This document shows positions 9,775 through 64,000 of a stretch of DNA of 64,000 bases, piece after piece. The notes below the pieces were generated by a model. That model was not told the origin of the DNA. It searched no databases and saw only the letters and a list, made by a program, of their open reading frames with translations. This DNA is from an uncultured Actinomycetota bacterium. Lineage in GTDB: Bacteria; Actinomycetota; Humimicrobiia; Humimicrobiales; Humimicrobiaceae. The stretch lies in contig CAZODQ010000001.1 in the NCBI GenBank assembly GCA_964578625.1, positions 23,401-87,400 of the forward strand, written 5' to 3'. The first letter of the stretch is position 1. Each line of letters starts with the position of its first letter. Made by a program: the position numbers and the translations under genes.

Positions 9775-10851
9775 TTATATTTTCTGAAAGATGCCGTAGA
9801 TATAACCGCATATTTTTGAAAAATCTATTAGCAGAAGTAAAAAAGGTATGGTTGGGATAGATAGGAACTTCTCAAACCTATAAAAAATAAAGCTTCTCTT
9901 ACCATTCCAGTTTCTGACCAGTCTGACATAGGGCTTTAAAATGTAAAGCATGAAAAGGGGTATCAATACAGCCAATATCCATTTACTAAAATAAAACGCA
10001 CTGAACAAAATAATTAAGAAAGCAAGAAATGCAGCAAATCTTATAAGATGGCGGGCCGGATACATATTGCCTACGGCGTCGCCTTTTGCATATCTAAAGA
10101 ACTGCTGGGATATTTGAATAAGGTTCTCCCTCATCCTCCAATAAACCACAGCTTTTGGATTGAACCTTATTTTATAACCGGCAGATTTTATATTAAAATT
10201 AAATCTCATATCTTCTCCGTATTCCATATTTTCGGGATAACCGCCGGCTATAGTCCAGATATCCCTTTTAAAACTAATATTTCTGGACGAAGGCATATAC
10301 CTTTCAGCTTTTATTTCCTTTTCCGCAGGCATGATACATACGGCAAGACATTTCTGTATGAAATTCCGGCATAACGGCAGATTAAGACCTCCGACCACAT
10401 TACATGAACTATCATTATAAAAGGCAGTAATTTCTTTTAGCCAGTTTCTATCTAGAATACAGCCTGCATCACCTACGCATATAATCCTGCCTGACGTGTT
10501 TTTTATGGCATTATTTCTACCCTGTGAAATATTTGCACCTTTTTTTCTTATCAACCTGATATTTATGACATATGTCCCACTTTTATTCTTTTTTATCCTA
10601 CCCCTGTTATTTTCATTTAACACAATATTCAGACCCCTGTGTTTCGGTGAAGCTATATTTTTGAAAAATTTTGAAGTAATACTAAAAGTCTTATCTTCAG
10701 AACCTCCGTCCACTATAACTATTTCCCCAGGAAGACATGTCTGTGCCATTAGACTTTTTAGAAATTCAGAAATATTCCCTTCCTCATTATAAACAGTAGT
10801 TATGAAGCTTATATCCGGAAGTATGATTTTTTTACTATTTTCAACTGTCAT
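9775..10851 (-). CDS. GT2 glycosyltransferase with C-terminal transmembrane helices
   Basis: 358 aa. ISFITTVYNEEG...IVIVDGGSEDKT. The hydrophobic C-terminal third resembles the membrane anchor of polyprenyl-phosphate sugar synthases. Overlaps the next gene by 11 nt. Confidence 0.75.
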   Translation of the reverse strand: MTVENSKKIILPDISFITTVYNEEGNISEFLKSLMAQTCLPGEIVIVDGGSEDKTFSITSKFFKNIASPKHRGLNIVLNENNRGRIKKNKSGTYVINIRLIRKKGANISQGRNNAIKNTSGRIICVGDAGCILDRNWLKEITAFYNDSSCNVVGGLNLPLCRNFIQKCLAVCIMPAEKEIKAERYMPSSRNISFKRDIWTIAGGYPENMEYGEDMRFNFNIKSAGYKIRFNPKAVVYWRMRENLIQISQQFFRYAKGDAVGNMYPARHLIRFAAFLAFLIILFSAFYFSKWILAVLIPLFMLYILKPYVRLVRNWNGKRSFIFYRFEKFLSIPTIPFLLLLIDFSKICGYIYGIFQKI

Positions 10852-11815
10852 ATCCCTGACCTCTGAAGTATGATTTTAAGACCTTAAAATAAATCAAAAG
10901 CTTAGCTCTATTACTTTTGACCGGTTTAAATACAGATAATATTATAAATAACAGTATCCTGTTTATAATTCCTGTTAAATAAATAAAACTTAAAAACTCC
11001 TCATGTGTTTTAGAATAATTTTTCTTAAAATATAATCTTCTGCTTGTCCAGATACCTATTTCCCTTACAGCCATATTCCTGGATGCAATAGCCATGTCAA
11101 CATGCTCTATTATAAAGTATGGAAAATAATAGTTCTTAAAGCCCTTTCTATATAATTTAAGACAAAGATCACTGTCCTCGCTGTATATAAAATAATCCTC
11201 ATCAAACATCCCCACTTCTATAAAGTCATCCTTTTTTATAAACATAAATGAGCCTGTAAGCCAATCCACTTCTCTTTCGCTTTCATGGTCCCACCAGCTC
11301 ATAAAATAAGATCCGAAAATACGGCTTTTTTTAAATATCCTGTATAAAAAATAACTCTCATAAAATTGTCTTGCAAGTGTTGGAAAAGATCTTGAGCTGA
11401 GCTGAAGAGTTCTATCCATATTTAATATTTTTGCTCCTATTACCCCTACCCTGCCGTTTCTATTCCTTTTATTATAAAAAACTATAATATCTTTTAAATC
11501 ACCCTCTAAAAACTTTGTATCAGGATTTAAAAACAGCAGGTATTTACCTTTCGCTTTTGAAGCTCCGATATTGGATGCTCTTGAAAAACCCATATTTTTC
11601 TTATTAGCTATAAAACGGAAAGTATCATTCATTTTGTCCTGTTCTTCCAGATACTCTATACTTCCGTCACCGGATTTATTATCCACAACCAATATCTCAT
11701 AACTTAATTTATTTTTTTTTCTCTTATTTGTTTCAGTGATCTTGCTTATGCTTCCGAGGCAGTCTTTAATAAAACTAAGACTGTTATAATTTACGATTAT
11801 AATACTAATATCCAA
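10841..11815 (-). CDS. GT2 glycosyltransferase
   Basis: 324 aa. IIVNYNS...VVDNKSGDGS...FIYSEDSDLC acidic motif. Confidence 0.8.
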   Translation of the reverse strand: MDISIIIVNYNSLSFIKDCLGSISKITETNKRKKNKLSYEILVVDNKSGDGSIEYLEEQDKMNDTFRFIANKKNMGFSRASNIGASKAKGKYLLFLNPDTKFLEGDLKDIIVFYNKRNRNGRVGVIGAKILNMDRTLQLSSRSFPTLARQFYESYFLYRIFKKSRIFGSYFMSWWDHESEREVDWLTGSFMFIKKDDFIEVGMFDEDYFIYSEDSDLCLKLYRKGFKNYYFPYFIIEHVDMAIASRNMAVREIGIWTSRRLYFKKNYSKTHEEFLSFIYLTGIINRILLFIILSVFKPVKSNRAKLLIYFKVLKSYFRGQGYDS

Positions 11816-11842
11816 TCATACCACCAGTCGACAATCCCTTTG

Positions 11843-13468
11843 CTATTTTTTTAATAAGTCACTGACTATTGAAATCAGGTTCCTTTTAAAATTTATATTT
11901 GAAAATCTTCTGCAGTTTTTAACTGCATTCTTTCTAATTCCTTTTGTATCAATTTCCCCGCGTATTATGCTTAAAGTAATATTTTTAAGTTCCTCCCAGC
12001 TTTCAAATAAAAATCCGTTATACTTGTCATTTATGATCTCCTTTTGACCTCCCTTATTGATAACAACAGGAATACATCCAGCTGCCATTGCCTCTACGGT
12101 AGTTATTCCAAAATGTTCAAATTTCTCAGGATGGATTTTTTCATCTTCATCCATCCCGGAAGCGTGCCAGAAAATATACGATTTTGCAAAAAGTTTTACC
12201 AGTCGCGGCCATTCCATATTAGTAATTACCCTTATGGGGTAATTCTTACTCACTTCCCTTATCTTTTCCACATACTTCAGATGGTCAGGCCTCCTGTCCA
12301 GACCGCCGACCAGATATAGAGTATAACCCTTCATGTCATCAGGATACAGCCTCAGCAGCTCCTTGAATATCTCAGCCAGTTCCAGCTGCTTTTTATTATG
12401 ATGCTCCGGGAAAAATCTACCTACGCTTAAGATAATTTTCTCCTTAATGCCGGATTTAAGATTAGCAATATCTACGGGAGGGAATAAAACAATGCTCTGT
12501 CTGTTCCATAATCTCTTTATCCACTTTTTTGAATATACCGATATGGCAATTATTTTATGGTAGGTCTCCAAAAATTTCAGATCCCTGGGAAAAGTTATCA
12601 GAAATAAAGGGATATACCCTAAAATCTTGAGTATTATTTTTTTATAAAAGTGTATCCTTCTCCGATCATAGACTACTATACCAAGCTTTCTGGAATCCTT
12701 TGAACTTTCACCTGCTTCCAGCGGAATAAAAGTATCGGATGAGATTATGACTTTACAATATTTTTCATCATTACCTAATGGAATTTCAAAAGTACATTTA
12801 ACTCCTCTTCCAAGCCTTATATGTTTATCATATAGAAGTCTCTCCTTTTTTTCTCCAGCCCCGAATACCTTGATATCCACCCCTATTTTACTTAGACTGC
12901 TTGCTTTAGGATTCTTGAAGCCTAGTATCAACGGCTGGTCAGTTTTTTTTACCTTTAAAATTACCCTCCCGCTGCTCCAGCTTCCTCTTCTTAACAGAAA
13001 CCTTTTGGGATCATATAATCCTTCAACTATTTCTATTTCGTTGAAGCTGCACGAGAATCTTTCTGAATATTTAAAAAGCCATAACGCAGGCAATCTGAAA
13101 AAAAACAATAAAAACTTATGAATTAACCGGAAATCCACATCAAAAGGAGTTGGGAAATAACATAAATATATGTTCTTCTTACCATATGCAGGAAGCGAGC
13201 TTAAATAAGTGGCATTTATAAACAGATCATACTTCTTTATGATCCTTTCAGCATAATCCTCTGATATAAAAGGGAATATTTTCAGGTTTACCCTTTCCAG
13301 TTCAAGATTTAACCTGCCGGAAGTCTCTTTTAAATCAGCAAATATATCAGTTATCAGATCTACTTCAAACTCTTTATTTTCAGATAAAACTTCCGCAATC
13401 TTGCAGCTGTACCGTTCTCCGCCGCCAGCCGTCGATAAATATCTATCATAAATAGCTATATTTTTCAT
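11843..13468 (-). CDS. GT4 (Glycos_transf_1) glycosyltransferase with extended N-terminal region
   Basis: 541 aa. The C-terminal GT-B domain shows ...LYLVGGL...FWHASGMDEDEKIHPEKFEHFGITTVEAMAAGCIPVV. Confidence 0.8.
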   Translation of the reverse strand: MKNIAIYDRYLSTAGGGERYSCKIAEVLSENKEFEVDLITDIFADLKETSGRLNLELERVNLKIFPFISEDYAERIIKKYDLFINATYLSSLPAYGKKNIYLCYFPTPFDVDFRLIHKFLLFFFRLPALWLFKYSERFSCSFNEIEIVEGLYDPKRFLLRRGSWSSGRVILKVKKTDQPLILGFKNPKASSLSKIGVDIKVFGAGEKKERLLYDKHIRLGRGVKCTFEIPLGNDEKYCKVIISSDTFIPLEAGESSKDSRKLGIVVYDRRRIHFYKKIILKILGYIPLFLITFPRDLKFLETYHKIIAISVYSKKWIKRLWNRQSIVLFPPVDIANLKSGIKEKIILSVGRFFPEHHNKKQLELAEIFKELLRLYPDDMKGYTLYLVGGLDRRPDHLKYVEKIREVSKNYPIRVITNMEWPRLVKLFAKSYIFWHASGMDEDEKIHPEKFEHFGITTVEAMAAGCIPVVINKGGQKEIINDKYNGFLFESWEELKNITLSIIRGEIDTKGIRKNAVKNCRRFSNINFKRNLISIVSDLLKK

Positions 13469-13479
13469 AAGAAGCCTTG

Positions 13480-14889
13480 CTAAAAATCCCTCATCCAGCT
13501 TTTAATAATTCTATCATGAATTTTCCTGCTGTTTCTTATTCTGATTCTAACCAATAAATTTTTGGGAAGTAAATAAAACAGTTCAAAGAAGACCCTGATC
13601 CTGATTGGAATATCAATTCTTTTCTGCATCTTCCTCCTTAACTTTCCAGCCAGGTAGCTCAAGATATTGATTATATTTGAAAGGATAAATGCCGCGCAAC
13701 TTTTAAAAAATAAAAGCGGCCAGCCGCATTTAAAAATCATAAGCAGCCTATTCCTAACCACATGATATATAAAATTATAAGACCACTCCTTGCTGGTACC
13801 GCAGTGAAAATGTCTTACAATAGATTTGGGAGTAAAGAAATTTTTCCAACCTGCCAATCTGGACCTCCAGAACAAATCAATATCTTCATAGTATGTGAAA
13901 AAGTTATTATCAAAACAACCCATATCTTCAAACATTTTTCTATCCATCATAAAGCTGCTTCCGCTTAAGCCAAAGACCTCCTCAACCCTGCTGTACTGGC
14001 CTTCATCAAAACTTTCAAAACCCCTATCCCTGCTGTAAAAAGATTTATTTATTTTAATACCGCAGCTATTAATAATATCTTTCCTGTGGGTAAAAAGTCT
14101 TCTGGGAATCTTTATTCTAACTGTTTTAGCCCTCCCGGTAACTTTCATATCTTTTACTATTTCTTCGCCTATTACCATTTGTAAATTATTGGGTGAGATA
14201 TATGATAATACTTTAAAGCTTAAATCCAATTCTTTGTTTAGATCCTCAACCGGTACAGCCAGAACTGCGTTACCCTTTGACCAGCAGTAGATTTCCCCAC
14301 TCTCATCTGATTCCTGGGGATAAAAACCATCCATATACTTGATACTCTTATTTAAAATACTCTTTCCGTTGTCTTTTTCTCCAGCACTTCCGACTTTTAT
14401 ATCATATATTTTAACACCAAGCCTTCTTGATCTTTTACTGCTGCGCATGTCTGTTTGACTGATACTGCTTGCAATTAACTGAAGAGGCAGGTAAGGGTAA
14501 TAAAAAACTACTTTGGAACCTACTGCTCCTATTTTCGAATCATCAGTGGATTGCCTGAAGATGGAAAGCATTTCGTACAACCAGTTTTTATCGACCACAC
14601 AATCATTATTAATCAGGGCAATATATTTACCCTTTGAACGGTAAAATCCTTCATTATTACCTCCGGCATAACCTTTGTTTTCATTTAATGCGATTATCTC
14701 TACCTGCGGAAATTCCTTTTTTACAAACTCAACCGAACCATCTGTAGAATTATTATCTACCATTATTATCTGAATTTTTTTAAGTGGATAATTAAGATCG
14801 AGTATAGAATTAAAAAGGTTATATAAAAATCTCTTACCGTTAAAATTTACAGTGATAATTGATATTAAAGGATCATCATCTTGCACCAA
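13480..14889 (-). CDS. GT2 glycosyltransferase (long, with inserted region)
   Basis: 469 aa. ISIITVNFNGKRFL...IIMVDNNSTDGS...NENKGYAGGNN...YYEDIDLF. Confidence 0.8.
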   Translation of the reverse strand: MVQDDDPLISIITVNFNGKRFLYNLFNSILDLNYPLKKIQIIMVDNNSTDGSVEFVKKEFPQVEIIALNENKGYAGGNNEGFYRSKGKYIALINNDCVVDKNWLYEMLSIFRQSTDDSKIGAVGSKVVFYYPYLPLQLIASSISQTDMRSSKRSRRLGVKIYDIKVGSAGEKDNGKSILNKSIKYMDGFYPQESDESGEIYCWSKGNAVLAVPVEDLNKELDLSFKVLSYISPNNLQMVIGEEIVKDMKVTGRAKTVRIKIPRRLFTHRKDIINSCGIKINKSFYSRDRGFESFDEGQYSRVEEVFGLSGSSFMMDRKMFEDMGCFDNNFFTYYEDIDLFWRSRLAGWKNFFTPKSIVRHFHCGTSKEWSYNFIYHVVRNRLLMIFKCGWPLLFFKSCAAFILSNIINILSYLAGKLRRKMQKRIDIPIRIRVFFELFYLLPKNLLVRIRIRNSRKIHDRIIKSWMRDF

Positions 14890-14920
14890 TTAAATATCCC
14901 ACCTTACTTAAACTGAAATG

Positions 14921-15319
14921 TCATCCTCTGGAAATTACAATTACTCCTATAGTTATTATAAGTGCACCTATCCATCGTATTAAGTTTACATCTTCTTTCA
15001 GTATAAACTTTGAAAGAATCAATAACATTACATAAGTAGATCCAATAAACGGATAAGCAAAACTAAGGTCCACAGCAGATAGTACTACAAGCCATATCGC
15101 AGCTGAAATAATATATAAAAATAGACCAGATATTACCAGGGGACTTTTTATTATTCCAAGAAATAATTGACCGAGATAATCAAGCCCGTTTAAACTAACT
15201 ATCCTAATGCGGTTTATACCTATTTTCAATAACATCTGTCCACCCACAGCTATAGAGACGCTTAGTAAAATAAGTAATATTGTACTTACCAGACTCAATT
15301 TATTTCTCTCCTTAATCAT
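14921..15319 (-). CDS. Small 4-TM DMT/SMR-like membrane protein (ArnE/ArnF-like flippase subunit family)
   Basis: 132 aa, four hydrophobic segments, ...KEDVNLIRWIGALIITIGVIVI C-terminal pattern typical of EamA/SMR-type small transporters. Paralogous to 30940..31278 and 31282..31656. Confidence 0.5.
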   Translation of the reverse strand: MIKERNKLSLVSTILLILLSVSIAVGGQMLLKIGINRIRIVSLNGLDYLGQLFLGIIKSPLVISGLFLYIISAAIWLVVLSAVDLSFAYPFIGSTYVMLLILSKFILKEDVNLIRWIGALIITIGVIVISRG

Positions 15320-15352
15320 AGTTACACTATATTTTATTATCAGACTCGACAG

Positions 15353-17665
15353 TTAAGATCTATGTTTTCTTGCCAAATAATATTTGTTAGAGACAGTCAG
15401 GCCCATTATTCTGTCAATATTTTCCAGATCCCTCAGCAATACCTCAAGTTTCTGATCAATATCTATCTTCAGACCTGATTTGCTTTTGGGTTTAAAATTG
15501 CCTAAAACTTCCCTTAAACTACTAATATCATAACCAAGGCTTTTAATTTCTTTATGAAGAGTACGGAATATATCAAAATATATAAGAATCAATCTCTCCC
15601 GGTTCTTTCGATTCAGTTCATTCATTTCTTTATTTATTTGAACCTGAATATTATTATTAATGGCTTTTATCGACTGGTTATAACTCTTCCTTAAATTCTC
15701 AAAATACATACTGGTAAGGAGGTATATATATCTCCTCAGTCTTCCCTTTACATCCTTATCTTTACTCAGCTCTTCAGAATTTAAAATATCAAACCTGCTT
15801 AAAAGCCTTAAATCTTCAAAATTCTCTCTGTCCAGTTTTATCTCGAAAAGTTCAAATAATTCATTCCTGCCATATATCTCACCTATTTCATCTTTATTGC
15901 TATCTATTGTTCTATACTCTATTTCATCCCATATTCCCTTATCCTTGATCTCAAAACCGGCATTTTTTAATATATATTCAATAGTAAAATCATCAATTCT
16001 TACACTGGACCGGCTTCTTCTTGTACCCTCACCAAGAACCTTATAAAGCCCTCTTTCATCAGGAATTGAAAAAAACAGCAAACCATCCACTTTTAACTTT
16101 GATGCAAGTACGTTTATCAGGTCATAGAAAAATTTCGGAGATATTTTATAAAAGACATTATTTAAAATAATACCTTCATATTTGGTCCTTTCAGTTATTT
16201 TAGACTTTAGCATTCCTATTTCATCCAGCTCTTTCTCTTCATCTTCTATAACTGCCAGGCCAACATCCATCTCCATCCAAAATATTCTGCCCACATTAGT
16301 CCCACTTATAGCTTCTTCATCTCTATATTTATTAGAGGTTATATTCAGGACATTGGCACAGCCTTCAAAATTGTCTTTTATGATTTTTGATATTTTACTG
16401 TTCTGCAGATTAACCAACTCGGTGATCTTTTTCTTGTCAACCGCATAATCGGGATTAACACAGTATTTGACAAGCGGTTTGGTCACATTTTCCCAGTAAA
16501 ACCTGGGGGCAATTTTAATTAGATTTTTCCTGTATATCTCTCTTAAGCTTTTATTAGTAGCCATACTCTCCATGACTCTTGCCAGCTGTGCGGTATTTTC
16601 ATACTTTACCACTTCACCTATGTTCTCGGCCTTTACCATCTTCGCTATAGAATCCCCTTCGGTTGTTATAACCGGAAGTCGCGCCCAGATGTAATCTATG
16701 ACCCTCGTCCTATAGGAAAACTCGGTTTCTATCCTTTCTTGATGGATCGACAAGCCCACATCTGCGTCCAGCAGGAATGTCTGTCTTAGGTCGTATGGCG
16801 TCCATTCATTAAAAAATACAAGCTTTTCATACATATCGAGCTCTTTACTCAATTGTATTGCCTCCATGCATTTTTTCATTTCAGGAAGGCTGGAGTCCGG
16901 GTGTTTTATTCCCATAAATATCATTTTTATATTCTTTTTATCCCTGGTAATCTCCCATAATGCTTTAATAGCCGTAATTGGATCGAGCCAGTTCCAGATA
17001 CCACCTCCCCATAGGATTATACTGTCACGTTCATTGATACCCGGGATTCTATCCCCAGTATACGAAGTAGAGCGCTTGGGAGGCTGGGAAGGCATTCCGG
17101 AAGGAACAATATCTATCAGGTTCCTTAAGGTTTTATCGGAATCATAGCTGTACGGATTTATTCTACCCATGGCATTTAACATCCCTACCCAATAGTCCCT
17201 CTGTTTTTCACTTGCACAGATAAAGAAATCTCCTATTGAAAGCTGCATTTTCAATATATTTAAATTATTTTTATCAATTCTGATCCTCTCCGCAATATCA
17301 CTGTCTCTGAACATTTCCAGGCTCTCTAAATTGAAAGGATTATACAGATCTACAATAATCTTGCCTTTAAAGTTTCTGAGGAAAGGAAAATAGTAAAGAA
17401 TATGACCCTGGATCAATATGGTATCCGCCTTATCAATATATCTCTGTAAGCTTTTATAACTTCCTAACTTGTACTGTCTAGCCTTAAAGCCTTCAGTATC
17501 AATATCTATCTTATTGGGAGTAACCAGAGTAACATCCAGGTAATCAGATAAAATTTTTGCAAACTCGTAAAACCTTATACCTGGACCGGCCATATTTCTA
17601 CCAATGATGTCATAACTTATTATACAGATATTCGAAGAACTTTTATTGTTTAATTCGGTATCCAT
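15353..17665 (-). CDS. Multidomain protein: N-terminal GT-B (GT4-like, WGGG-type) glycosyltransferase, degenerate class-I methyltransferase-like domain and C-terminal coiled-coil
   Basis: 770 aa. The GT domain (IILWGGGIWNWLDP...LPVITTEGD) is paralogous to domains in 18850..20319 and 51638..54145. The middle region (KYEGIILNNVFYKISPKFFYDLINVLASKLKVDGLLFFSIPDE) aligns by eye to motifs II-III of the MTase 62433..63650 but has no GxGxG motif I. The C-terminal roughly 200 aa are heptad-rich and charged. Confidence 0.6.
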   Translation of the reverse strand: MDTELNNKSSSNICIISYDIIGRNMAGPGIRFYEFAKILSDYLDVTLVTPNKIDIDTEGFKARQYKLGSYKSLQRYIDKADTILIQGHILYYFPFLRNFKGKIIVDLYNPFNLESLEMFRDSDIAERIRIDKNNLNILKMQLSIGDFFICASEKQRDYWVGMLNAMGRINPYSYDSDKTLRNLIDIVPSGMPSQPPKRSTSYTGDRIPGINERDSIILWGGGIWNWLDPITAIKALWEITRDKKNIKMIFMGIKHPDSSLPEMKKCMEAIQLSKELDMYEKLVFFNEWTPYDLRQTFLLDADVGLSIHQERIETEFSYRTRVIDYIWARLPVITTEGDSIAKMVKAENIGEVVKYENTAQLARVMESMATNKSLREIYRKNLIKIAPRFYWENVTKPLVKYCVNPDYAVDKKKITELVNLQNSKISKIIKDNFEGCANVLNITSNKYRDEEAISGTNVGRIFWMEMDVGLAVIEDEEKELDEIGMLKSKITERTKYEGIILNNVFYKISPKFFYDLINVLASKLKVDGLLFFSIPDERGLYKVLGEGTRRSRSSVRIDDFTIEYILKNAGFEIKDKGIWDEIEYRTIDSNKDEIGEIYGRNELFELFEIKLDRENFEDLRLLSRFDILNSEELSKDKDVKGRLRRYIYLLTSMYFENLRKSYNQSIKAINNNIQVQINKEMNELNRKNRERLILIYFDIFRTLHKEIKSLGYDISSLREVLGNFKPKSKSGLKIDIDQKLEVLLRDLENIDRIMGLTVSNKYYLARKHRS

Positions 17666-17757
17666 TATATCTCTCCATTATGTCTACCATAAATAAAAAT
17701 TAAAATCATAAACAAATCCCAGTGCTCTCAAATAGTCCGGCTAATTTTGAGATGCAA

Positions 17758-18792: not shown

Positions 18793-18849
18793 ATTGCTTC
18801 CTGTTATAATCCGTATAATGCCAAGAGAAGGCAGGAGCGGGATAGAAGG

Positions 18850-24937: not shown

Positions 24938-24938
24938 C

Positions 24939-45614: not shown

Positions 45615-45687
45615 AAATAGATAACCAATATTCAAATTTTTATATCAGTAAGTAAAATTTATAAAATAATATTCAGGAATTAATATT

Positions 45688-56775: not shown

Positions 56776-57941
56776 CAGATAAAATTTTAAGAATCGGAAT
56801 CGATATATCAACCCTGCTAAATCATGGCCCGGATATCGGTGCCGGCAGATACATAATAAACCTTGTAAAAAACTTACTTAAAATCGATAAAAAAAATATC
56901 TATATTCTTACCGGAAGGTATACTTTAGAAACACATATCGAGATTGTATATAACATAAAAAAGGATTTTAAAAAAAGCAGGGTTGAACTGAAATTATATA
57001 AAACTTCCCAAAAAAACCTTGGTCTGTGGGACAGATTCGGATTCCCTCCCATTGAATTTCTAGGCTTTAAAGCAGATATACTGCACTGCCCCGATTATCT
57101 CATTCCCCCTACTCTAAATAAGAATATAATCCTGACAATTCATGATCTGGCCTTCATAAGGTTTCCGGAATTTAATTTTGAGTGGTTCATAAAAAAATAT
57201 ACAAGAGACGTCAGGAGAAATGCACATATCTCAAAGAAGATAATCGCTGATTCAAAAAGCACCAAAAATGATATTGTAAAATTCTTTAAAATAGATCCTC
57301 GTAAAGTGGATGTGGTCTATCTTGCCTCAGACAGGACATTTAAAATTCTGACTTCAAACAAGATCGATAAAAACATACTTAAAAAGTACAAAATAGATAA
57401 GAAATATATACTTTCAGTAGGGACTATTGAGCCCAGAAAAAATTTTATAACACTGATCAAATCTTTCAATCAATTAAAACAGAAAAGCACCGGCTTCGAT
57501 TATAAGCTTGTAATAGCGGGCAGGACCGGCTGGAAGAGTGAAGCCACTTACGAGGAGAGAGATAAGAGCCCTTACAAGGAAGATATCTTGTTTATAGGAA
57601 GAGTCCCGGACTTTGATCTTGTACAGATATACAACCAGGCTGAGCTCTTTGTTTACTCTTCTCTTTTTGAAGGTTTTGGCCTGCCTCCTCTGGAAGCGAT
57701 GAGCTGTGGACTCCCATTAATAACATCAAACAACTCAGCCTTAAAAGAAGTGATTGGTAATGCCGGAATAGCCGTTCCACCGAAAAATTATAATGAATTT
57801 CAAAAACAAATATTATATATACTCCAAAACAACAATATAAAAGATAGACTTAAGAAAAAATCACTAATGCAGGCAAAGAAATTCAACTGGACAAATACAG
57901 CCGGAAAAACTTTAGAAATTTATAAAAAACTATGCTGTTAA
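56772..57941 (+). CDS. GT4 (Glycos_transf_1) glycosyltransferase
   Basis: 389 aa. VYSSLFEGFGLPPLEAMSCGLPLITS. A 4-nt ATGA overlap couples it to the upstream gene. Confidence 0.8.
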   Translation: MTDKILRIGIDISTLLNHGPDIGAGRYIINLVKNLLKIDKKNIYILTGRYTLETHIEIVYNIKKDFKKSRVELKLYKTSQKNLGLWDRFGFPPIEFLGFKADILHCPDYLIPPTLNKNIILTIHDLAFIRFPEFNFEWFIKKYTRDVRRNAHISKKIIADSKSTKNDIVKFFKIDPRKVDVVYLASDRTFKILTSNKIDKNILKKYKIDKKYILSVGTIEPRKNFITLIKSFNQLKQKSTGFDYKLVIAGRTGWKSEATYEERDKSPYKEDILFIGRVPDFDLVQIYNQAELFVYSSLFEGFGLPPLEAMSCGLPLITSNNSALKEVIGNAGIAVPPKNYNEFQKQILYILQNNNIKDRLKKKSLMQAKKFNWTNTAGKTLEIYKKLCC

Positions 57942-57946
57942 GAAAT

Positions 57947-59332
57947 TTATCTGCCGGTATCATTTTTTATTTCTATTCTTGAATTTAAATCTGCAACACC
58001 TTCAGCTATTTTTCTGCTTATAACATTTATTGTAAACATATCATTTACCCAATCACAGTAGGTCATATTGTCCTTATATGCTACGGCAGATGAAATAAGA
58101 TACTCTCCGCCTATCAAAGGAATCTTCTGGTTAAAAATTACCTTTATCAAATCGTCCTTTTTAAATGTCCCTGTTTTTATATTATTCAATCTTGTATTGG
58201 TCCCGTATACAACATTGCCCCTGAAGTCTTTAATCCTTATCCCAAACACAGGTTCCTCAATTTTTTTCTTGAACAGCACCTCATAAACTATTTTAACATT
58301 ATCTCCATACTCACAAAAATCAATCTCTCTGTCCTTGCTGTCCAGGAGCTTTATATTTTGAATCTCGGCATCCCCGCTTCCAAATCTTTTAATAGTTTCT
58401 CCGCTTACACTCGAGTCAGCCAGTTTTATTATTTCTTCTCCATTGACTATTTTTCTGTTGCGTTCTATCACAGTCTTGAATATTTTCTTTCTTTCTATGC
58501 TCTGCTGTTCAATAATTCTCTTTTTCTCCAGCTCTTCAATATAAGCTCTATATTTCACTACTATATTTAATGGCTTGCCCATATCTACTATCTTTCCATC
58601 CTTTAAAAATATTACCTTGTTGCATAAATCAGAAATAGTATCCAGGTCATGCGAAACTATTATTATCGTCTTACCCTTTTTCATGAAATTATAAATGACT
58701 TTATAGCACTTTGCCTGGAAAGCCTGGTCTCCCACAGCCAAGACTTCATCAACAAGCAGAATATCCGGATTGACATTAATTGCAACAGAAAATCCCAGTC
58801 TCATATACATACCTGATGAATAATTCTTGACCGGCGTATCAATAAATTTGGCAAGTTCCGAAAATTCTATGATCTTGTCCATTTTTTTATCGACTTCTTT
58901 CTTCCTCATACCAAGAATCGCTGCATTTATATAAACATTTTCTCTTCCAGTAAGATCAGGGTGAAATCCTGCTCCCAATTCCAGAAGTGCCGACATCGAT
59001 CCATTCACAATAACTTCCCCGCTGGTAGGCTGAAGAATATTTGCCATTAGTTTAAGCAGGGTGCTCTTTCCCGAACCGTTCGGTCCGATTATACCCAGCG
59101 TCTGCCCGTGGTCTACTGTGAAAGATACATCATCCAGAGCCAGGAACTCTTCAAACGTTGTACGATTTCTCCTGAGAATGGTATTTTTCAGGCTTGGGAT
59201 CTTTTCATGGTAAATCCTGTACCTTTTAAATACAGACCTTATATCAACAGCCGCATCATTTCCAGGATCCTTAATCCCTTTCCCCATGTACTTATTCTCT
59301 TTTTTGTTCATTTGATTAGATTTCCTCTGCAA
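57947..59332 (-). CDS. wzt: Polysaccharide ABC exporter ATP-binding protein Wzt/TagH-like with C-terminal (Wzt_C-like) extension
   Basis: 461 aa. Walker A GPNGSGKST, ABC signature YSSGM, Walker B ILLVDEVLAVGD. About 190 additional C-terminal residues follow the NBD, as in Wzt proteins that bind capped glycan termini. Confidence 0.85.
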   Translation of the reverse strand: MQRKSNQMNKKENKYMGKGIKDPGNDAAVDIRSVFKRYRIYHEKIPSLKNTILRRNRTTFEEFLALDDVSFTVDHGQTLGIIGPNGSGKSTLLKLMANILQPTSGEVIVNGSMSALLELGAGFHPDLTGRENVYINAAILGMRKKEVDKKMDKIIEFSELAKFIDTPVKNYSSGMYMRLGFSVAINVNPDILLVDEVLAVGDQAFQAKCYKVIYNFMKKGKTIIIVSHDLDTISDLCNKVIFLKDGKIVDMGKPLNIVVKYRAYIEELEKKRIIEQQSIERKKIFKTVIERNRKIVNGEEIIKLADSSVSGETIKRFGSGDAEIQNIKLLDSKDREIDFCEYGDNVKIVYEVLFKKKIEEPVFGIRIKDFRGNVVYGTNTRLNNIKTGTFKKDDLIKVIFNQKIPLIGGEYLISSAVAYKDNMTYCDWVNDMFTINVISRKIAEGVADLNSRIEIKNDTGR

Positions 59333-60149
59333 ATCTGGGTTCTAATTTTTTAAAAACAAAATAACCTACAAAAAATATAAGCAGTGTTATCCCAAGAGCA
59401 ATCAAAGTCTCCATAGTGCTGGGGAAACCTGCACCTTCCGGATATTTTATATAATAGAAAATATTCCTGTAGTAAGCAGCATACACTGTCATCGGATTTA
59501 GTTTTATTATAAATTGAAATCTTTCCGGGACCATCTGCAAAGGATAGATAATAGGGGTACCGAAAAACCATACCATCATGATGATAGTTATCAGATGCTG
59601 AAGATCCCTGAAAAACACATTTAAGGCCGATACCAGCAGAGTCATGCCCACGACCAGGAAGAACTGTATAAATATCAATATGGGTAATACATAAAGAAAT
59701 AAATAGAATCTATATCCAAGAACAGCAAGCGCAATAAATAAGGCAACAAGCTCCAAAAGAAAGTTAAAAAGGTTGGCAAACACAATAGACAGAGGAAGTA
59801 TTTCTCTGGGAAAATAAATTTTATTCACAAGATTGCTATTGGAAATAATACTTCCCGTACTATAGTTGACTGAATTAGAAAGAAAATTAAATGGAAGCAA
59901 GGCACAGATTAAAAAAATTGCAAATTCTTCTATTCCTGCCCGCAGCACAATTGAAAAAACGAAAGTATATACCAGCATGGTCAGTATAGGATTTAAAAGG
60001 GACCAGAAAAAGCCTAAAACCGACCCCCTATATTTAACCTTAAGCTCTTTCTTTGTAAGACTAAAAAGAAGCTCTCTGTATGAAAAAAGTATTTTAAAAT
60101 TTTTTATCATCTTTATTCTTAAGCTCCAACCAGATTTTACAGAATCCAA
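59316..60149 (-). CDS. wzm: ABC-2 type polysaccharide exporter permease (Wzm/KpsM/TagG-like)
   Basis: 277 aa. KELKVKYRGSVLGFFWSLLNP ABC-2 signature and 6 TM segments. Overlaps wzt by 17 nt. Confidence 0.85.
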   Translation of the reverse strand: MDSVKSGWSLRIKMIKNFKILFSYRELLFSLTKKELKVKYRGSVLGFFWSLLNPILTMLVYTFVFSIVLRAGIEEFAIFLICALLPFNFLSNSVNYSTGSIISNSNLVNKIYFPREILPLSIVFANLFNFLLELVALFIALAVLGYRFYLFLYVLPILIFIQFFLVVGMTLLVSALNVFFRDLQHLITIIMMVWFFGTPIIYPLQMVPERFQFIIKLNPMTVYAAYYRNIFYYIKYPEGAGFPSTMETLIALGITLLIFFVGYFVFKKLEPRFAEEI

Positions 60150-60178
60150 TCTAATACTAAAATATTTATTTTATAAAC

Positions 60179-61345
60179 CTAATCAATAGCTTCAATCTGA
60201 CTTTTAAGTTTAGTAAATATATTTTTTATATCATAGTTCTTCACAACATACTCCCTGCCTCTCTCCCCCATTTTACCAGCTTCACTTTTATTTTTTAAAA
60301 GATAATCAATACCTTTCTTAAAACTATTATAATCATGATAAAGCAGCCCTCCACCACTTCTTCTTATATGTTCGACTATAACCTCCGAACCGTTACTTGC
60401 CAGTATAGAAGTCTTTTGAGCCATTGCTTCAAGAGTGACTATACTAAAACTTTCATTGGGGGACGGCATAATAAAGATATCAGCTCCACTCATTAATCTA
60501 AATTTTTCTCCCTCAGATACATTGCCCTTAAATATAATATCCCTGCTTGATAGGATTTTAATCTTATTATCTCCAGTCAATATTAAATGTAAATTAGATG
60601 GGTTATCCTTTTTATATTTTAAAAAGTAATCGACTAGTTGGTTGCAACCTTTATTTATATCAATTCTCCCACAATATAATATATAGGGAAAATTTAAATT
60701 GGCAGGAGGAAACTTTTTTGTTTCTACTCCCATGCCAATTACACAGCCTGGTAATTCTCCCCATAACGACTTGCCAAAATGATACTCACTCTCTGTATTC
60801 CATAGAATAATTCTCGTTCTCTTAGCCATATATTTATAAACGGAAAGATAAGCCGATGGCTCATCATGCAAGGTCGGTACAAATAAAATCTTATGCCGTG
60901 GAACATTAAACATCCCAAAATAAGTTGTGGGATAAAGATAGGTCAGAAATATCACAGCTTTGTATTGCCAGCTTTTTTCAGATAAAAAATTCATTAAATC
61001 ATTTGAGTATGGCCCCTGTTTATATATGAATTCTTCCTGAAGAGGAGCAGGCCATTCAATGAGTCTCTTCGTATTTCCAAATTCTTCTAAAAGCCGTCTA
61101 TGAATCTCTTCCCAATAGTCTGCTCTACCCTGTGAAACCTTAAATCTTTTAATACATATCCCATGTATGATTTCATCACCTTCATCCAGCACATTTTTCC
61201 ATTTTTCAAAATCTACTGCAGTTGTGGTTAGAATGTGAACCTCATAACTTTTTTTTAACAAATTCCCGTAATGCCATGCTTCAGCTTCAGAACCACCAAC
61301 AATTTTTTCATGACATCTTTGAACAACAATAGCCAATTTTCTCAT
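60179..61345 (-). CDS. GT-B glycosyltransferase (GT4-like)
   Basis: 388 aa. C-terminal ...FIMPSPNESFSIVTLEAMAQKTSILAS E-x7-E-like motif. Confidence 0.6.
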   Translation of the reverse strand: MRKLAIVVQRCHEKIVGGSEAEAWHYGNLLKKSYEVHILTTTAVDFEKWKNVLDEGDEIIHGICIKRFKVSQGRADYWEEIHRRLLEEFGNTKRLIEWPAPLQEEFIYKQGPYSNDLMNFLSEKSWQYKAVIFLTYLYPTTYFGMFNVPRHKILFVPTLHDEPSAYLSVYKYMAKRTRIILWNTESEYHFGKSLWGELPGCVIGMGVETKKFPPANLNFPYILYCGRIDINKGCNQLVDYFLKYKKDNPSNLHLILTGDNKIKILSSRDIIFKGNVSEGEKFRLMSGADIFIMPSPNESFSIVTLEAMAQKTSILASNGSEVIVEHIRRSGGGLLYHDYNSFKKGIDYLLKNKSEAGKMGERGREYVVKNYDIKNIFTKLKSQIEAID

Positions 61346-62436
61346 AGGTACTTACCAATAATATTTAAAAATTTCTGTTTAATTATTTTATTTGTAAAAT
61401 TATTTTTATATCTTCTCCAACCTGCTTCTCCCAGGAAAAAATAATCATTTCCACTGGTAACGATTTTATCAATTGTAGCGGTAATTAGGTTAATGTCTAA
61501 ATCCTCCCATACTATTCCACCATCACCAACCGTATCGGCAACTGCGGTTGAACCATAAGTTACAACAGGAATTTTCATACTCATAGCTTCAACCAAAGGC
61601 AAACAAAAACCTTCGTGATAGCTTGTCAGGACAAAAACTCTGGAAACAAGAAAATACGATTTCAATTGCTCATCACTGACTTTACCGGTAAATATGACAG
61701 AATTGTCGAGGTTCATATATCTTACTTTATAATCCAAATAATCAATATAAGCAGATAGCCATTGATGTCTATTACCCACTATGATCAATCTACTTTCTTT
61801 ATTAAAATGCTCGTTATATAAGGCAAAAGCGTCAATAAGTTCTGAAAATCCTTTATTAGGAACTACTCTACCCACAGATAAAATATTCACTTTATTATCA
61901 TTATATTTGTCTATTATGTTAAAATCAGGTTTAAGGTTTTTTAATTCCCCTATAGTATTAAACGGGGGGATAATAAAACACTTCGAGGCTTTGGCACCCT
62001 CGGAGATCATGCCTAACATATTAAACCTGGAATCACTTAAATAAATTTCTAAATCCAAATTAGCAATAATATTTAACTGTTCTATACCACCTCTACAAGT
62101 CTCGGCATGATTCGAGCTAAATCCATAGAAATAATAAGGTGGAGTTATATTATGGTATTTTATAATTTTTTTACAATCCAGCCTGGTCAATATATCCATA
62201 CCTTTAAACCACCCGGCAGACAGGTGGTATATTATTACATCTTCATTATGTTTAATAAAATTACCAATACAATCAATACTTTTTACTATCTTATACTTAT
62301 CCGAAATAAAGATGTTTTCTGCAAAAATGTTTACGTTAAGATTCTGCTTACTGAGGACGTCAAACATGCCTAGAACGTCGTTGCTTACTGCATCACCATT
62401 AGAAACCACTGAAGTACAAATAGCTATATTCTTCAT
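61342..62436 (-). CDS. GT4 (Glycos_transf_1) glycosyltransferase
   Basis: 364 aa. VFVLTSYHEGFCLPLVEAMSMKIPVV. Confidence 0.8.
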   Translation of the reverse strand: MKNIAICTSVVSNGDAVSNDVLGMFDVLSKQNLNVNIFAENIFISDKYKIVKSIDCIGNFIKHNEDVIIYHLSAGWFKGMDILTRLDCKKIIKYHNITPPYYFYGFSSNHAETCRGGIEQLNIIANLDLEIYLSDSRFNMLGMISEGAKASKCFIIPPFNTIGELKNLKPDFNIIDKYNDNKVNILSVGRVVPNKGFSELIDAFALYNEHFNKESRLIIVGNRHQWLSAYIDYLDYKVRYMNLDNSVIFTGKVSDEQLKSYFLVSRVFVLTSYHEGFCLPLVEAMSMKIPVVTYGSTAVADTVGDGGIVWEDLDINLITATIDKIVTSGNDYFFLGEAGWRRYKNNFTNKIIKQKFLNIIGKYL

Positions 62437-63650
62437 ATTTTATAACCTACTACTGCATAATCTTGAGGTCCGTAAAAATAATCATTGAACCGCTTTGAAG
62501 TCTCCGAATCATCTTCCTTTAATTTAAGATCATCATTATAGGGATTGATATCAATAACCTCTATATTAATAAAACCTCGGGATTCTAAAGCCAATTTAAC
62601 CAACAAGCTTGGCAATGGCTTATTATGGGTAGGATCCAGATAAAAACTGTAACTGCCTACCAAAACATTGCCAGGATTTGGAGTTTCCAATATTACCAGT
62701 CCACCTGGTTTCAATACACGCAATATTTCGTCCAGCAGTTTAATTAAAAAATCAAATCCATAATGCTCAATAAGGTGAAATCCGGTAACAGCGCCAAGAC
62801 TGTCATTGGAAACAGATTTCATAAAAGAAAACACTTCGGCTTCTATAACATCAAGTCCTCTTTCCTTGCAAATCTCCACCATGACTTTATTTGGATCCAA
62901 TCCTCTAGCATGTAAATTTGCTTCCTTTAACAATTCCAACCACTCGCCACGGCCGCAGCCTATATCCAGTACGGAAGAGTCTTTCGTCCCGACATTTGCC
63001 TTTTTTATAATAGGAATATAAACATTTAGGCGCTCTTTTATTTCCTTACGGCTGCCTCTTAAATTATCTTCCAAAAAAACATAAAGAGAATCCAGGCTGT
63101 GATCGATCTCTCTAGTTAAATTTTGCAATCTAGCTTTACCCATTTTTCTGGTATCCTTTCCTACACTTCCAGAAAGATTTTTTATTCCTTTCTCCAGTTG
63201 GATTAAATTATTCTTCAGATAATTTATTATATTATTAAGTTTATTAATCTCGATGTCCTTCTCTTCCAGTTTATTTTTTAGTTCCATAATTTTAGTATCA
63301 GACTGGGTCTTGTATTCAGCAAATCTGAACTTAAGTTTGTTGCAATCATCGATAATACTTCTCAGGGCATCAAGTATAGACAAGTTAAACTGCCTCTGGT
63401 TTATAGTGATTATCTTTAAAACCTTAATAAGAATCCTGCCAGCCCACCTGTAAATTATCCTTTTTGGAATAGACAAACTACTAAAAGAAGGTACATCTAA
63501 ACCAATTCTTGCATTTCTCTCTGCCCAATCCAAATAATCATAGATACTATTCTTTTCTTTATCCCTGCAATAAACCTCTGTTTCTTTTCTAATTTTTTTC
63601 TTTAAATCTTTAATATATTTTTTTGTATCATCCGAGCCAACCATAATCAC
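62433..63650 (-). CDS. Class-I SAM-dependent methyltransferase with N-terminal coiled-coil (candidate chain-terminating capping enzyme, WbdD-analogous)
   Basis: 405 aa. VLDIGCGRGEW motif I, DVIEAEV post-I acidic residue, LRVLKPGGLVILETPNP motif III. The N-terminal ~200 aa are heptad-like and charged (KIMELKNKLEEKDIEINKLNNIINYLKNNLIQLEKGIKNL). Confidence 0.75.
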   Translation of the reverse strand: MIMVGSDDTKKYIKDLKKKIRKETEVYCRDKEKNSIYDYLDWAERNARIGLDVPSFSSLSIPKRIIYRWAGRILIKVLKIITINQRQFNLSILDALRSIIDDCNKLKFRFAEYKTQSDTKIMELKNKLEEKDIEINKLNNIINYLKNNLIQLEKGIKNLSGSVGKDTRKMGKARLQNLTREIDHSLDSLYVFLEDNLRGSRKEIKERLNVYIPIIKKANVGTKDSSVLDIGCGRGEWLELLKEANLHARGLDPNKVMVEICKERGLDVIEAEVFSFMKSVSNDSLGAVTGFHLIEHYGFDFLIKLLDEILRVLKPGGLVILETPNPGNVLVGSYSFYLDPTHNKPLPSLLVKLALESRGFINIEVIDINPYNDDLKLKEDDSETSKRFNDYFYGPQDYAVVGYKI

Positions 63651-63657
63651 TCATCCC

Positions 63658-64000
63658 TCAATAAGCTCCCCTTCCAAACAGTATTACAGGAATAGTCTTT
63701 AAAATTATTTTAATATCCAGCTCAATAGACCAGTTTTGTATATAATATAGATCCAGCCTTGCCATCTCTTCAAAAGATAGTTCACTTCTTCCACTTATCT
63801 GCCACAATCCTGTACAACCCTGCTTAACCCCCATCCTTCTCAGCTCCCATTCGTCATATTTTTCAACTTCAACCGGAAGCGGCGGCCGAGGCCCTACCAG
63901 GCTTAGTTCCCCTTTTAAAACGTTTATAATCTGAGGTAATTCATCAATCGAAAATTTTCTTAATATTTTTCCAACCCGAGTAACTCTCGGATCATTTCTA
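63658..64000 (-). CDS. Polyprenyl-phosphate sugar phosphotransferase (bacterial sugar transferase family, WbaP/PglC-like); C-terminal part only, gene runs off the window
   Basis: Manual translation of the minus strand gives ...KFSIDELPQIINVLKGELSLVGPRPPLP...GLWQISGRSELSFEEMARLDLYYIQNWSIELDIKIILKTIP...*. This carries the hallmark DELPQ...LVGPRP motif of PF02397. Stop at 63658-63660. Absent from the ORF track because the N-terminus lies beyond 64000. Confidence 0.85.
   Translation of the reverse strand, partial: RNDPRVTRVGKILRKFSIDELPQIINVLKGELSLVGPRPPLPVEVEKYDEWELRRMGVKQGCTGLWQISGRSELSFEEMARLDLYYIQNWSIELDIKIILKTIPVILFGRGAY

Follow-up and report, generated by a model that had tools for sequence, protein, structure and literature searches.

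Positions 9775 to 64000 of the DNA analysed here, a 64,000-nucleotide stretch of contig CAZODQ010000001.1 that we refer to as the window, are likely to form a composite supercluster for cell-envelope glycans in which several known types of pathway lie side by side. This reading builds on features seen directly, namely gene content, domain families and paralogy, together with the linkage of the modules and their synteny. The region holds 43 genes at a coding density of 95%, and 17 of the encoded proteins carry 19 glycosyltransferase (GT) domains, namely eight GT2, nine GT-B and two GT-C. With an assumed GT background of 2% of genes, taken from general knowledge, the binomial probability of 17 GT proteins among 43 genes is about 3e-18. 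The original prediction, made from the sequence alone, had described a locus of more than 54 kb with about 20 GT domains (at least eight GT2, at least nine GT-B and two or three GT-C). The tally by Pfam, paralogy, profile searches and structure modelling agreed with these numbers, and the predicted exporter, flippase-like, nucleotide-sugar and tailoring genes also held up under the hidden Markov model (HMM), paralogy and structure tests.

Pfam matches above threshold accounted for eight GT2 and eight GT-B domains. Six GT2 domains are in single-domain proteins (9775-10851, 10841-11815, 13480-14889, 17758-18792, 31902-32858 and 37549-38523), and the other two are halves of dual-domain proteins (N-terminal in 51638-54145, C-terminal in 54409-56775). 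The GT-B (Glycos_transf_1) proteins are 11843-13468, 15353-17665, 18850-20319, 39889-41004, 56772-57941, 60179-61345 and 61342-62436, to which the remaining halves of the two dual-domain proteins are added (C-terminal in 51638-54145, N-terminal in 54409-56775); both dual-domain proteins, predicted as such, were confirmed by Pfam. The GT-C proteins are 29013-30902 and 49156-50472. The Pfam family scans upheld the GT assignments except for two proteins with no significant match, one GT-B (15353-17665, confirmed by paralogy) and one GT-C (49156-50472, confirmed by profile search and a structure model). Annotation with Pfam or dbCAN only would miss these two GTs.

The genes fall into at least 11 strand runs, and the region consists of at least 11 transcription units in separable modules, with no single operon. 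By prediction, the modules comprise an ABC-exported polymer, two systems of lipid-phosphate-sugar synthase, candidate flippase and GT-C, pairs of a GT and an MprF-type flippase, sugar supply and secreted tailoring. Translational coupling by overlaps of 4-17 nucleotides (nt) had been proposed; five same-strand overlaps were found, but their range is 4-11 nt, and the 17-nt overlap vanishes with the Wzt start chosen by the gene caller. Most genes, but not almost every gene as had been stated, are glycan-related, and about seven are not obviously so (two PD40 propellers, two small membrane proteins, two radical-SAM enzymes and one lipoprotein). The unusual GT density is real, but it arises from several ordinary-sized pathways side by side. 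The prediction had left the choice between one long branched polymer and several glycoconjugates. We favour several, a decorated polymer plus lipid-linked glycoconjugates, because of the at least 11 units, the two lipid-phosphate-sugar synthases, the two GT-C proteins, the six flippase-like proteins and the reordering of modules among relatives; one giant repeat unit is disfavoured.

The probable exported polymer and its exporter

The right-hand module, from 47556 to at least 69287, contains the following genes, along with GT-C no. 2 (49156-50472, below) and the genes past the window edge.
47556-48425, minus strand: RmlD, dTDP-4-dehydrorhamnose reductase (RmlD_sub_bind, 288 bits)
48435-49148, minus strand: lipoprotein (LxGC) with two C-terminal transmembrane (TM) helices (TM estimate, synteny)
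50496-51581, minus strand: MprF-type flippase-like protein 3 (Pfam, 106 bits)
51638-54145, minus strand: dual-domain GT2-GT-B protein of 835 amino acids (aa), candidate polymerising enzyme (Pfam)
54409-56775, plus strand: dual-domain GT4-GT2 protein, 788 aa (Pfam)
56772-57941, plus strand: GT4, with a 4-nt overlap with the upstream gene (Pfam)
57947-59287, minus strand: Wzt, ABC ATPase with C-terminal Wzt_C glycan-binding domain (gene-caller start; Pfam)
59316-60110, minus strand: Wzm, ABC-2 permease (ABC2_membrane, 65 bits)
60179-61345 and 61342-62436, minus strand: two GT4 genes with a 4-nt overlap (Pfam)
62433-63644, minus strand: methyltransferase of 403 aa, candidate chain-terminating cap enzyme (Pfam; N-terminal ~200 aa coiled-coil-like)
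63658-64000, minus strand: C-terminus of the initiating phosphoglycosyl transferase, the full protein reaching window-equivalent position 65610

Wzt matched Wzt_C with 113.9 bits (cut-off 30.4) and ABC_tran with 81.8 bits, and its ATPase domain matched the WzmWzt structures 8dku/7k2t in the PDB with an E value of 7e-70. The methyltransferase gene lies in the same strand run as Wzm and Wzt, two GT4 genes upstream of Wzm. When the methyltransferase was compared with contigs of species-representative genomes, one distant match was obtained (33% identity), in a metagenome-assembled genome (MAG) of Aminicenantes.

The locus had been predicted to continue beyond the window, and this was borne out by the Logan contig SRR14802572_3200, which overlaps 56167-64000 with zero mismatches and reaches window-equivalent position 69287, in agreement with a 92%-identical relative. 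Database entries 100% identical to Wzt and to TrpE were both located on one NCBI contig of 276,491 bp. The continuation encodes the rest of the phosphoglycosyl transferase (650 aa when complete, with CoA_binding_3 and Bac_transf domains), a 733-aa Wzy_C protein of the O-antigen-ligase family and another GT4. The span from 9775 to 69287 showed a single phosphoglycosyl transferase and a single ABC exporter, and no open reading frame (ORF) of at least 100 aa in this span matched a Wzx flippase (MOP/Polysacc_synt). A WecA-type Glycos_transf_4 domain was not matched either, the initiator being of the Bac_transf type.

GT-C glycosyltransferases and predicted lipid-linked donors

Each of the two GT-C proteins is listed here, the first with its neighbours.
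29013-30902, minus strand: GT-C no. 1, TMEM260/PMT_2-like, with at least 10 TM helices and a C-terminal soluble domain (Pfam, 82 bits)
30940-31278 and 31282-31656, minus strand: pair of small 4-TM proteins, ArnF-like and ArnE-like (EamA and ArnE/F model matches)
31902-32858, plus strand: GT2 of the polyprenyl-phosphate-sugar-synthase type with two C-terminal TM helices (AglJ, Dol-P-hexose, PpgS and ArnC models)
49156-50472, minus strand: GT-C no. 2, GT87/GT50-like, with 12 TM helices (profile search and structure model)

In the PDB, GT-C no. 1 matched 9rql (E 6.6e-20). The GT2 gene 31902-32858 is divergent relative to the GT-C and ArnE/F-like genes, and its product matched the PpgS model with an E value of 1e-18, far under the cut-off. 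With the one in the left module (14921-15319, below), there are three small 4-TM proteins, which scored 30.2, 29.6 and 24.2 bits against Pfam EamA (threshold 28.2 bits); all three matched ArnE/F models, far under the cut-offs.

GT-C no. 2 did not match any Pfam family, even at E values of 5-10. A search of 1.84 billion representative proteins gave relatives in 783 clusters at 50% identity. In an alignment of 58 family members, 25 matched GT87 and seven matched PIG-M, and the profile built from these 58 sequences matched GPI mannosyltransferase I with an E value of 1.3e-11; a profile of seven sequences had found nothing in the PDB. The AF2 model obtained with the 58-sequence alignment had a pLDDT of 94.6 and a pTM of 0.93, in comparison to an unusable single-sequence model (pLDDT 49.6). 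The best 22 Foldseek matches of the model were all GT-C proteins (GPI-MT-I, ALG6, PIG-U, ArnT, ALG3/9/12, STT3 and EmbB), and AftA came lower in the list. Asp49, the candidate for the acidic residue of the first outer loop, is conserved in at least 90% of the 58 sequences. The profile and the model thus qualify 49156-50472 as a predicted GT-C-fold enzyme of GT87/GT50-like type, and it represents a fairly large GT-C family that is overlooked by standard HMM annotation. The lipoprotein gene 48435-49148 follows this GT-C gene in every relative in which the latter was seen.

Predicted sugar supply, second synthase and MprF-type proteins

The middle block extends from 33156 to 47553.
33156-34553, plus strand: B12-binding radical SAM enzyme (best NCBIfam match HpnJ, far under the cut-off)
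34603-35643, minus strand: MprF-type flippase-like protein 1, LPG_synthase_TM/UPF0104 (Pfam, 148.9 bits; TIGR00374 above the cut-off)
35667-36410, minus strand: hexapeptide sugar O-acetyltransferase, WcaF/WbbJ-like (family models)
36537-37535, minus strand: radical SAM/SPASM enzyme (family models)
37549-38523, minus strand: GT2, full-length ArnC/PgfS-like polyprenyl-phosphate sugar synthase with C-terminal TM helices (ArnC model)
38516-39493, minus strand: nucleotide-sugar dehydratase/epimerase of the short-chain dehydrogenase/reductase (SDR) type, RmlB/GalE-like, with an 8-nt overlap with the GT2 gene 37549-38523
39889-42025, plus strand: GT4 (39889-41004) and, after 4 nt, MprF-type flippase-like protein 2 (41009-42025) (Pfam, TM estimate)
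42157-44468, plus strand: TviB-like UDP-GlcNAc 6-dehydrogenase and TviC-like 4-epimerase (NCBIfam models)
44631-45614, plus strand: SDR, HpnA-like (best NCBIfam match HpnA, far under the cut-off)
45688-47553, plus strand: AsnB-type glutamine amidotransferase (family models)

The GT2 protein 37549-38523 matched the ArnC model over its full length (E 2.2e-74, 250 bits), below the equivalog cut-off. Also the TviB-like (452 bits) and TviC-like (275 bits) proteins stayed under their equivalog cut-offs, with the subfamily model for NDP-sugar dehydrogenases being passed; from these matches the pair is predicted to supply UDP-GalNAcA, and the AsnB-type protein is a candidate for amidation of the uronic acid. 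For flippase-like protein 1, no sequence relative was detectable in the PDB. In total the block contains three SDRs. A hopanoid cluster was considered and rejected, as the HpnA- and HpnJ-like matches were far under the cut-offs and no other hopanoid-biosynthesis family was matched in the window; the two proteins concerned (33156-34553 and 44631-45614) may modify a lipid-linked sugar.

Surface proteins and candidate tailoring enzymes

To the left of GT-C no. 1 lies a block that encodes secreted or membrane proteins.
20499-22481, plus strand: membrane-anchored PD40 beta-propeller protein a (45% identical to 23159-24937)
22435-22983, minus strand: small 3-4-TM protein a, convergent with PD40 protein a (35% identical to 24939-25418)
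23159-24937, plus strand: PD40 beta-propeller protein b (Pfam)
24939-25418, minus strand: small TM protein b (paralogy with 22435-22983; TM estimate)
25489-27309, minus strand: membrane-anchored protein with three DUF11 domains and a GDSL/SGNH esterase domain (Pfam)
27400-28992, minus strand: membrane-anchored protein with CARDB and polysaccharide deacetylase (PF01522) domains (Pfam)

One hydrophobic segment, read as a membrane anchor, is present at the N-terminus of each of four proteins, namely the two PD40 proteins, the esterase and the deacetylase. By its domains, the esterase is a candidate extracytoplasmic O-acyl tailoring enzyme. The last 121 aa of the deacetylase are 61% identical to the last 121 aa of GT-C no. 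1, which suggests a targeting or glycan-binding module common to the two proteins. Pfam searches with sub-domains alone (this shared C-terminus, the C-termini of the 770-aa GT-B and Wzy_C proteins, and the repeats at the N-terminus of PD40 protein a) gave nothing significant. Positions 20499-25418 constitute a tandem duplication of a PD40 propeller gene with a convergent gene for a small 3-4-TM protein; some close relatives have one copy of this unit and others have two.

The presence of such proteins bears on the idea that protein glycosylation is the main end-point. In this reading, a glycan would be assembled on a lipid carrier and, after export, passed on to proteins of the surface or S-layer type by the Wzy_C-type enzyme and/or the PMT/TMEM260-like GT-C; the DUF11, CARDB and PD40 proteins would be the substrates. 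Parallels would be S-layer O-glycosylation in Geobacillus or, in Actinobacteria, protein O-mannosylation. Repeat proteins with a membrane anchor are encoded within the cluster, with synteny in relatives, the best match of GT-C no. 1 is a protein O-mannosyltransferase family, and the WbaP/WsaP-type initiator, Wzm/Wzt, methyltransferase and Wzy_C protein mirror the slg cluster (PMC2943079). However, the 69 kb covered by the analysis contained no S-layer homology (SLH) protein, no acceptor motif could be recognised, the domain that GT-C no. 1 has in common with a polysaccharide deacetylase points to a glycan acceptor, and Wzy_C proteins are also polymerases or ligases that act on non-protein acceptors. 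We consider it unlikely that protein glycosylation is the main end-point, and it is compatible with a supercluster of several envelope-glycan pathways rather than exclusive of it.

The left module and the trp operon

The left-hand part of the window contains a further GT module, the trp operon and an outlying GT gene.
78-872, minus strand: outlying GT2, 264 aa (Pfam GT2, 74 bits; synteny in L009 and L045)
2668-8852, minus strand: trpE-D-C-F-B-A operon, outside the pathway and a conserved synteny anchor, embedded among glycan genes
9775-10851, minus strand: GT2 with two C-terminal TM helices (Pfam GT2, 63.6 bits; TM estimate)
10841-11815, minus strand: GT2 with an 11-nt overlap with the downstream gene (Pfam, 74.6 bits)
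11843-13468, minus strand: GT-B of 541 aa with a long N-terminal region (Glycos_transf_1, 70.7 bits)
13480-14889, minus strand: GT2, 469 aa (Pfam; N-terminus 46% identical to the GT2 half of 51638-54145)
14921-15319, minus strand: small 4-TM EamA/ArnF-like protein, candidate subunit of a flippase for lipid-linked sugars (EamA, 30.2 bits)
15353-17665, minus strand: GT-B, 770 aa (paralogy; Pfam sub-threshold, 21.5 bits)
17758-18792, minus strand: GT2 (63.7 bits)
18850-20319, minus strand: GT-B, 489 aa (Glyco_trans_1_4, 41.8 bits)

The module 9775-20319 thus contains four GT2 proteins, three GT-B proteins and one ArnF-like small membrane protein, the last of which matched the ArnF model with an E value of 6.7e-12, under the cut-off. 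Residues 13-437 of 15353-17665 (425 residues) align with the GT-B half of 51638-54145 at 39% identity (E 4e-110). Judged by these identities (46% and 39%), the GT2 protein 13480-14889 and the GT-B protein 15353-17665 appear as a split paralogue of the dual-domain protein 51638-54145. Residues ~438-770 of 15353-17665 form a C-terminal extension of ~330 aa that is rich in coiled coil by eye and had a non-significant methyltransferase-like match (E 0.1); it could be a chain-length or scaffolding element.

The locus had been taken to start at 9775, which was not upheld. Positions 1-8852 contain the short GT2 gene 78-872, genes for two small enzymes and the trpEDCFBA operon, and in the relatives L009 and L045 the outlying GT2 gene is followed, beyond the trp operon, by genes for an SDR, an NTP-transferase, another SDR and PGM/PMM. 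The far-left sugar genes in the relatives and the right-hand contig continuation show that the locus is open at both ends, with the trp operon embedded in it. The product of 78-872 lacks the first ~18 positions of the GT2 profile; its homologue is 299 aa long in a more distant relative and 264 aa in a closer one. No trpG, for the glutaminase subunit of anthranilate synthase, was present between trpE and trpD in the window (6280-8852) or in the relatives, and a long antisense ORF across trpD (6044-7195, plus strand) is probably spurious. The gap of 922 bp between trpE and the first GT2 gene of the module (8853-9774) holds an ORF of 72 aa (9319-9537, minus strand), and a gene at the same position encodes 72 aa in L009 and 75 aa in L045; in L009 this gap also contains an inserted DUF4956-CotH-VTC trio.

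Conservation and variation in relatives

A metagenome scan with a GT-C gave 32 loci, which were compared with the window proteins by BLASTP. A comparison of synteny had been proposed along with the prediction, and it showed that relatives at 50-93% protein identity keep the modules linked, with reshuffling and with gain or loss of cassettes. Close relatives (GT-C 72-80% identical) are colinear with the window from position 18.8 kb to 41 kb, and one of them is without the deacetylase. In distant relatives (50-66%) the genes for GT2-GT-B, flippase-like protein 3, the GT87-like GT-C, the lipoprotein and RmlD adjoin the GT2/ArnEF/GT-C module. Relatives found via Wzt have a core of Wzy_C, phosphoglycosyl transferase, Wzm, Wzt, GT4, GT4-GT2 and GT2-GT-B, after which usually come a flippase-like protein and, where the contig reaches, RmlD; they vary in the cassette of methyltransferase and two GT4 genes, in toxin-antitoxin pairs and in a UbiA+HAD pair. 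A 757-kb contig of a relative at ~72% protein identity preserves the order of left module, trp operon and far-left sugar genes; the distance from TrpE to Wzt is 43.5 kb there, in comparison to 49.1 kb in the window and 39.1 kb in a closer relative. Farther along the cluster, the relative with a 92% identical GT4 has genes for a GumK-like GT4, a protein resembling heparinase II/III, a methyltransferase and a second AsnB.

Two insertions were observed in relatives. In L005 (GCA_054772995.1, Wzt 78% identical), a HicAB toxin-antitoxin pair and a UbiA/HAD pair (7643-9684) stand beside the exporter in place of the methyltransferase and the two GT4 genes, and the UbiA+HAD pair recalls polyprenyl-phosphoribose synthesis. 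In the more distant L044 (Ga0307434_1000001), an insertion with genes for a 1370-aa protein with Amidase_3 and PKD repeats and for a Germane-domain protein (1734-6619) separates the Wzy_C gene from that for the phosphoglycosyl transferase.

These comparisons also bear on the idea that the whole region serves one pathway, in which all of the ~20 GT domains would act on a single lipid-linked intermediate to make one very large, highly branched unit. The contiguity of the genes at 95% coding, their conserved linkage in relatives, and the single phosphoglycosyl transferase and ABC exporter between 9775 and 69287 would fit such a unit. Against it stand the strand runs, the left module that duplicates the right-hand polymerase as a split paralogue, and the reordered modules and present or absent cassettes among relatives, while the two lipid-phosphate-sugar synthases, two GT-C proteins and six flippase-like proteins imply several lipid-linked species; moreover, ABC-dependent pathways build processively, not by giant repeat units (general knowledge; PMC11231755). 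We regard a single giant unit as very unlikely.

Less probable still is an island of O-antigen or capsule type that was acquired by horizontal transfer and varies among strains, or a diderm lipopolysaccharide (LPS) O-antigen locus, for which the variable cassettes (methyltransferase with two GT4 genes, second PD40 pair, deacetylase, third flippase-like gene), the CotH/VTC and toxin-antitoxin insertions in relatives and the 'O-antigen ligase' family protein near the exporter could be cited, but the gene order is colinear over more than 60 kb at only ~72% protein identity, the GC content (33% in the window) is uniform with the flanking trp operon and without a compositional break, tRNA and Rfam scans of the window detected no element, no mobility genes were found, and the nearest named relatives are Actinomycetota. 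To our knowledge, Actinomycetota as a rule are without LPS. A mobile island was rejected on the conserved colinearity, the uniform GC and the lack of mobility or tRNA genes. Since gene order and linkage are conserved in relatives, the composite glycan region, of at least ~70 kb, is best described as a lineage-wide inherited feature with variation at the level of cassettes and not as a recent island.

Proposed assembly of the glycans

In the composite supercluster that we favour, the WbaP-type phosphoglycosyl transferase encoded at the window edge would start a polyprenyl-diphosphate-linked polymer, and GT4 enzymes together with the two dual-domain GTs would extend it in the cytoplasm; the split pair of the left module (13480-14889 and 15353-17665) may also contribute. 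The polymer would probably be capped by the adjacent methyltransferase and exported by Wzm/Wzt, and the C-terminal domain of Wzt would recognise the capped end; Wzt_C is known to recognise a modified glycan terminus before export (PMC9445017). Outside the membrane, the product may be decorated or extended by the GT-C proteins 29013-30902 and 49156-50472, which would draw on polyprenyl-phosphate sugars made by the ArnC/GtrB-type GT2 proteins 31902-32858 and 37549-38523. A GT-C with a C-terminal carbohydrate-binding module (GT136) has been published (PMC11127046), and GacI/J/L, PpgS/Rv3632/Rv3779 and gpgSDF follow the same logic (10.1101/180810, PMC3485146, PMC12713373). Flipping of the donors would fall to the small ArnE/F-like proteins, to the MprF-type flippase-like proteins or to both. 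The TviB/TviC-like enzymes would provide UDP-GalNAcA, possibly amidated by AsnB, and RmlD would catalyse the last step of dTDP-rhamnose synthesis. The membrane-anchored deacetylase and the SGNH esterase may tailor the glycan extracellularly, and the pair of GT4 and flippase-like protein (39889-42025) may make and flip a glycolipid.

Several points weigh against this proposal. Pathway products, sugars, linkages and acceptor are predicted from genes alone, and the sugar specificities are guesses, because all equivalog-level NCBIfam matches were below their cut-offs. No LCP-type ligase, S-layer gene or RmlA-C was present in the window. The N-terminal 200 aa of the methyltransferase had only weak matches of coiled-coil type, and the protein showed no similarity to WbdD, its best structural relative being an uncharacterised archaeal enzyme. 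The affiliation of the host with Actinomycetota is provisional, as it derives from the names that submitters gave to homologues of 46-72% identity: the nearest named homologues are from MAGs called 'Actinomycetota bacterium' or 'Actinobacteria bacterium' (TrpE 65-70%, Wzt ~72%), and a GT4 is 46% identical to that of a 'Candidatus Humimicrobiaceae' MAG.

All parts of the region belong to known families, and nothing here overturns current understanding. Modestly novel are the GT-C family that Pfam misses, the domain common to a GT-C and a deacetylase, and the three MprF-type flippase-like genes among GTs. The region provides a nearly complete, syntenic parts list for the envelope glycans of an uncultured lineage whose envelope is undescribed, in which ABC-exported polymers, GT-C decoration and MprF-type flippase-like genes are linked at 50-93% identity. 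A single joint reading would be that a deep-branching, low-GC lineage of Actinomycetota has its envelope-glycan programme gathered in a single conserved region of ~70 kb or more; that it uses a mycobacterium-like two-compartment scheme with cytoplasmic assembly, Wzm/Wzt export and GT-C extension from polyprenyl-phosphate sugars; that MprF-type (PplT) domains are dedicated flippases for lipid-linked sugars or glycolipid anchors; and that 49156-50472 belongs to an undescribed GT-C family with an obligate lipoprotein partner. We put this forward as speculation that is improbable when taken as a whole.

Comparison with known systems

The region resembles ABC-exported glycan systems (E. coli O9a WbdA/WbdD/Wzm/Wzt, Klebsiella O-polysaccharides and Aquifex WzmWzt; PMC9445017, PMC3482155, PMC11231755) in Wzm, in Wzt with Wzt_C, in an adjacent methyltransferase (a candidate cap enzyme) with a region that looks coiled-coil-like, in multidomain GTs and in the predicted start on a polyprenyl carrier; no Wzx was found. 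It differs from them in the initiator, which is WbaP-type Bac_transf and not WecA, and in the methyltransferase, which is without a kinase domain and not WbdD-like. A lipid A-core acceptor is not expected because the host is probably monoderm.

With the rhamnose-rich cell-wall polysaccharide clusters of Gram-positive cocci (group A carbohydrate gacA-L, EPA and the lactococcal cwps; 10.1101/180810, PMC9574508, PMC7188991), the region has in common an internal rmlD apart from rmlA-C, an ABC exporter, a GT2 lipid-phosphate-sugar synthase, small membrane proteins and a GT-C that adds side chains outside. In contrast to these clusters, it contains two GT-C systems instead of one, MprF-type proteins and a uronic-acid and amidation supply, and it is far larger. 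Of the set that defines a rhamnose cluster (complete rmlABCD, LCP ligase, WecA/GacO-type initiator), only RmlD was found.

Three-component systems of extracytoplasmic glycosylation (Gtr, Arn, CsbB/GtcA/YfhO and the GT136 pentofuranose systems) bring together a synthase, a small flippase and a GT-C, comparable to the predicted synthase, candidate flippase pair and GT-C at 29013-32858, and as in GT136 systems (PMC11127046) the GT-C of the region has a C-terminal soluble domain. GT2 synthases with C-terminal TM helices (31902-32858 and 37549-38523) and a GT-C are present; the candidate flippases are an ArnE/F-like pair and not GtrA or MATE, and the GT-C is TMEM260/PMT_2-like. The Arn pathway proper, for L-Ara4N modification of lipid A, was rejected, as the window contains no ArnA or ArnB and no aminotransferase or formyltransferase domain, and the SDR matches to ArnA reached at most 64 bits versus a cut-off of 777.

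The GT4 gene followed directly by a UPF0104/LPG_synthase_TM gene (39889-42025), and the three UPF0104-type flippase-like genes beside GTs, are similar to gpgSDF/hexSDF and PplT-domain proteins (PMC12713373, 10.1101/2022.03.11.483950). A true gpgSDF operon was rejected, as the match to the GpgS model had 36 bits versus a cut-off of 480 and no deacetylase is adjacent; the only one is 11 kb away, belongs to another family (PF01522) and is membrane-anchored outside.

Compared with the mycobacterial systems for arabinogalactan, lipomannan and lipoarabinomannan (with galactosamine addition by PpgS/Rv3632/Rv3779, and GT87 PimE; PMC3485146), the window has no Emb/Aft arabinosyltransferases, no galactofuranose or mycolate genes were among the family matches, and sequence identity with the mycobacterial enzymes is low and does not reach the cut-offs of the families. 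The likeness is in the logic: two-compartment assembly, a Wzm/Wzt-type exporter and GT-C enzymes acting on polyprenyl-phosphate sugars, together with a GT87/GT50-like protein (49156-50472), a PpgS match (31902-32858) and a host affiliated with Actinomycetota. The linkage of these modules in relatives bears on the possible origin of the mycobacterial style of envelope assembly.

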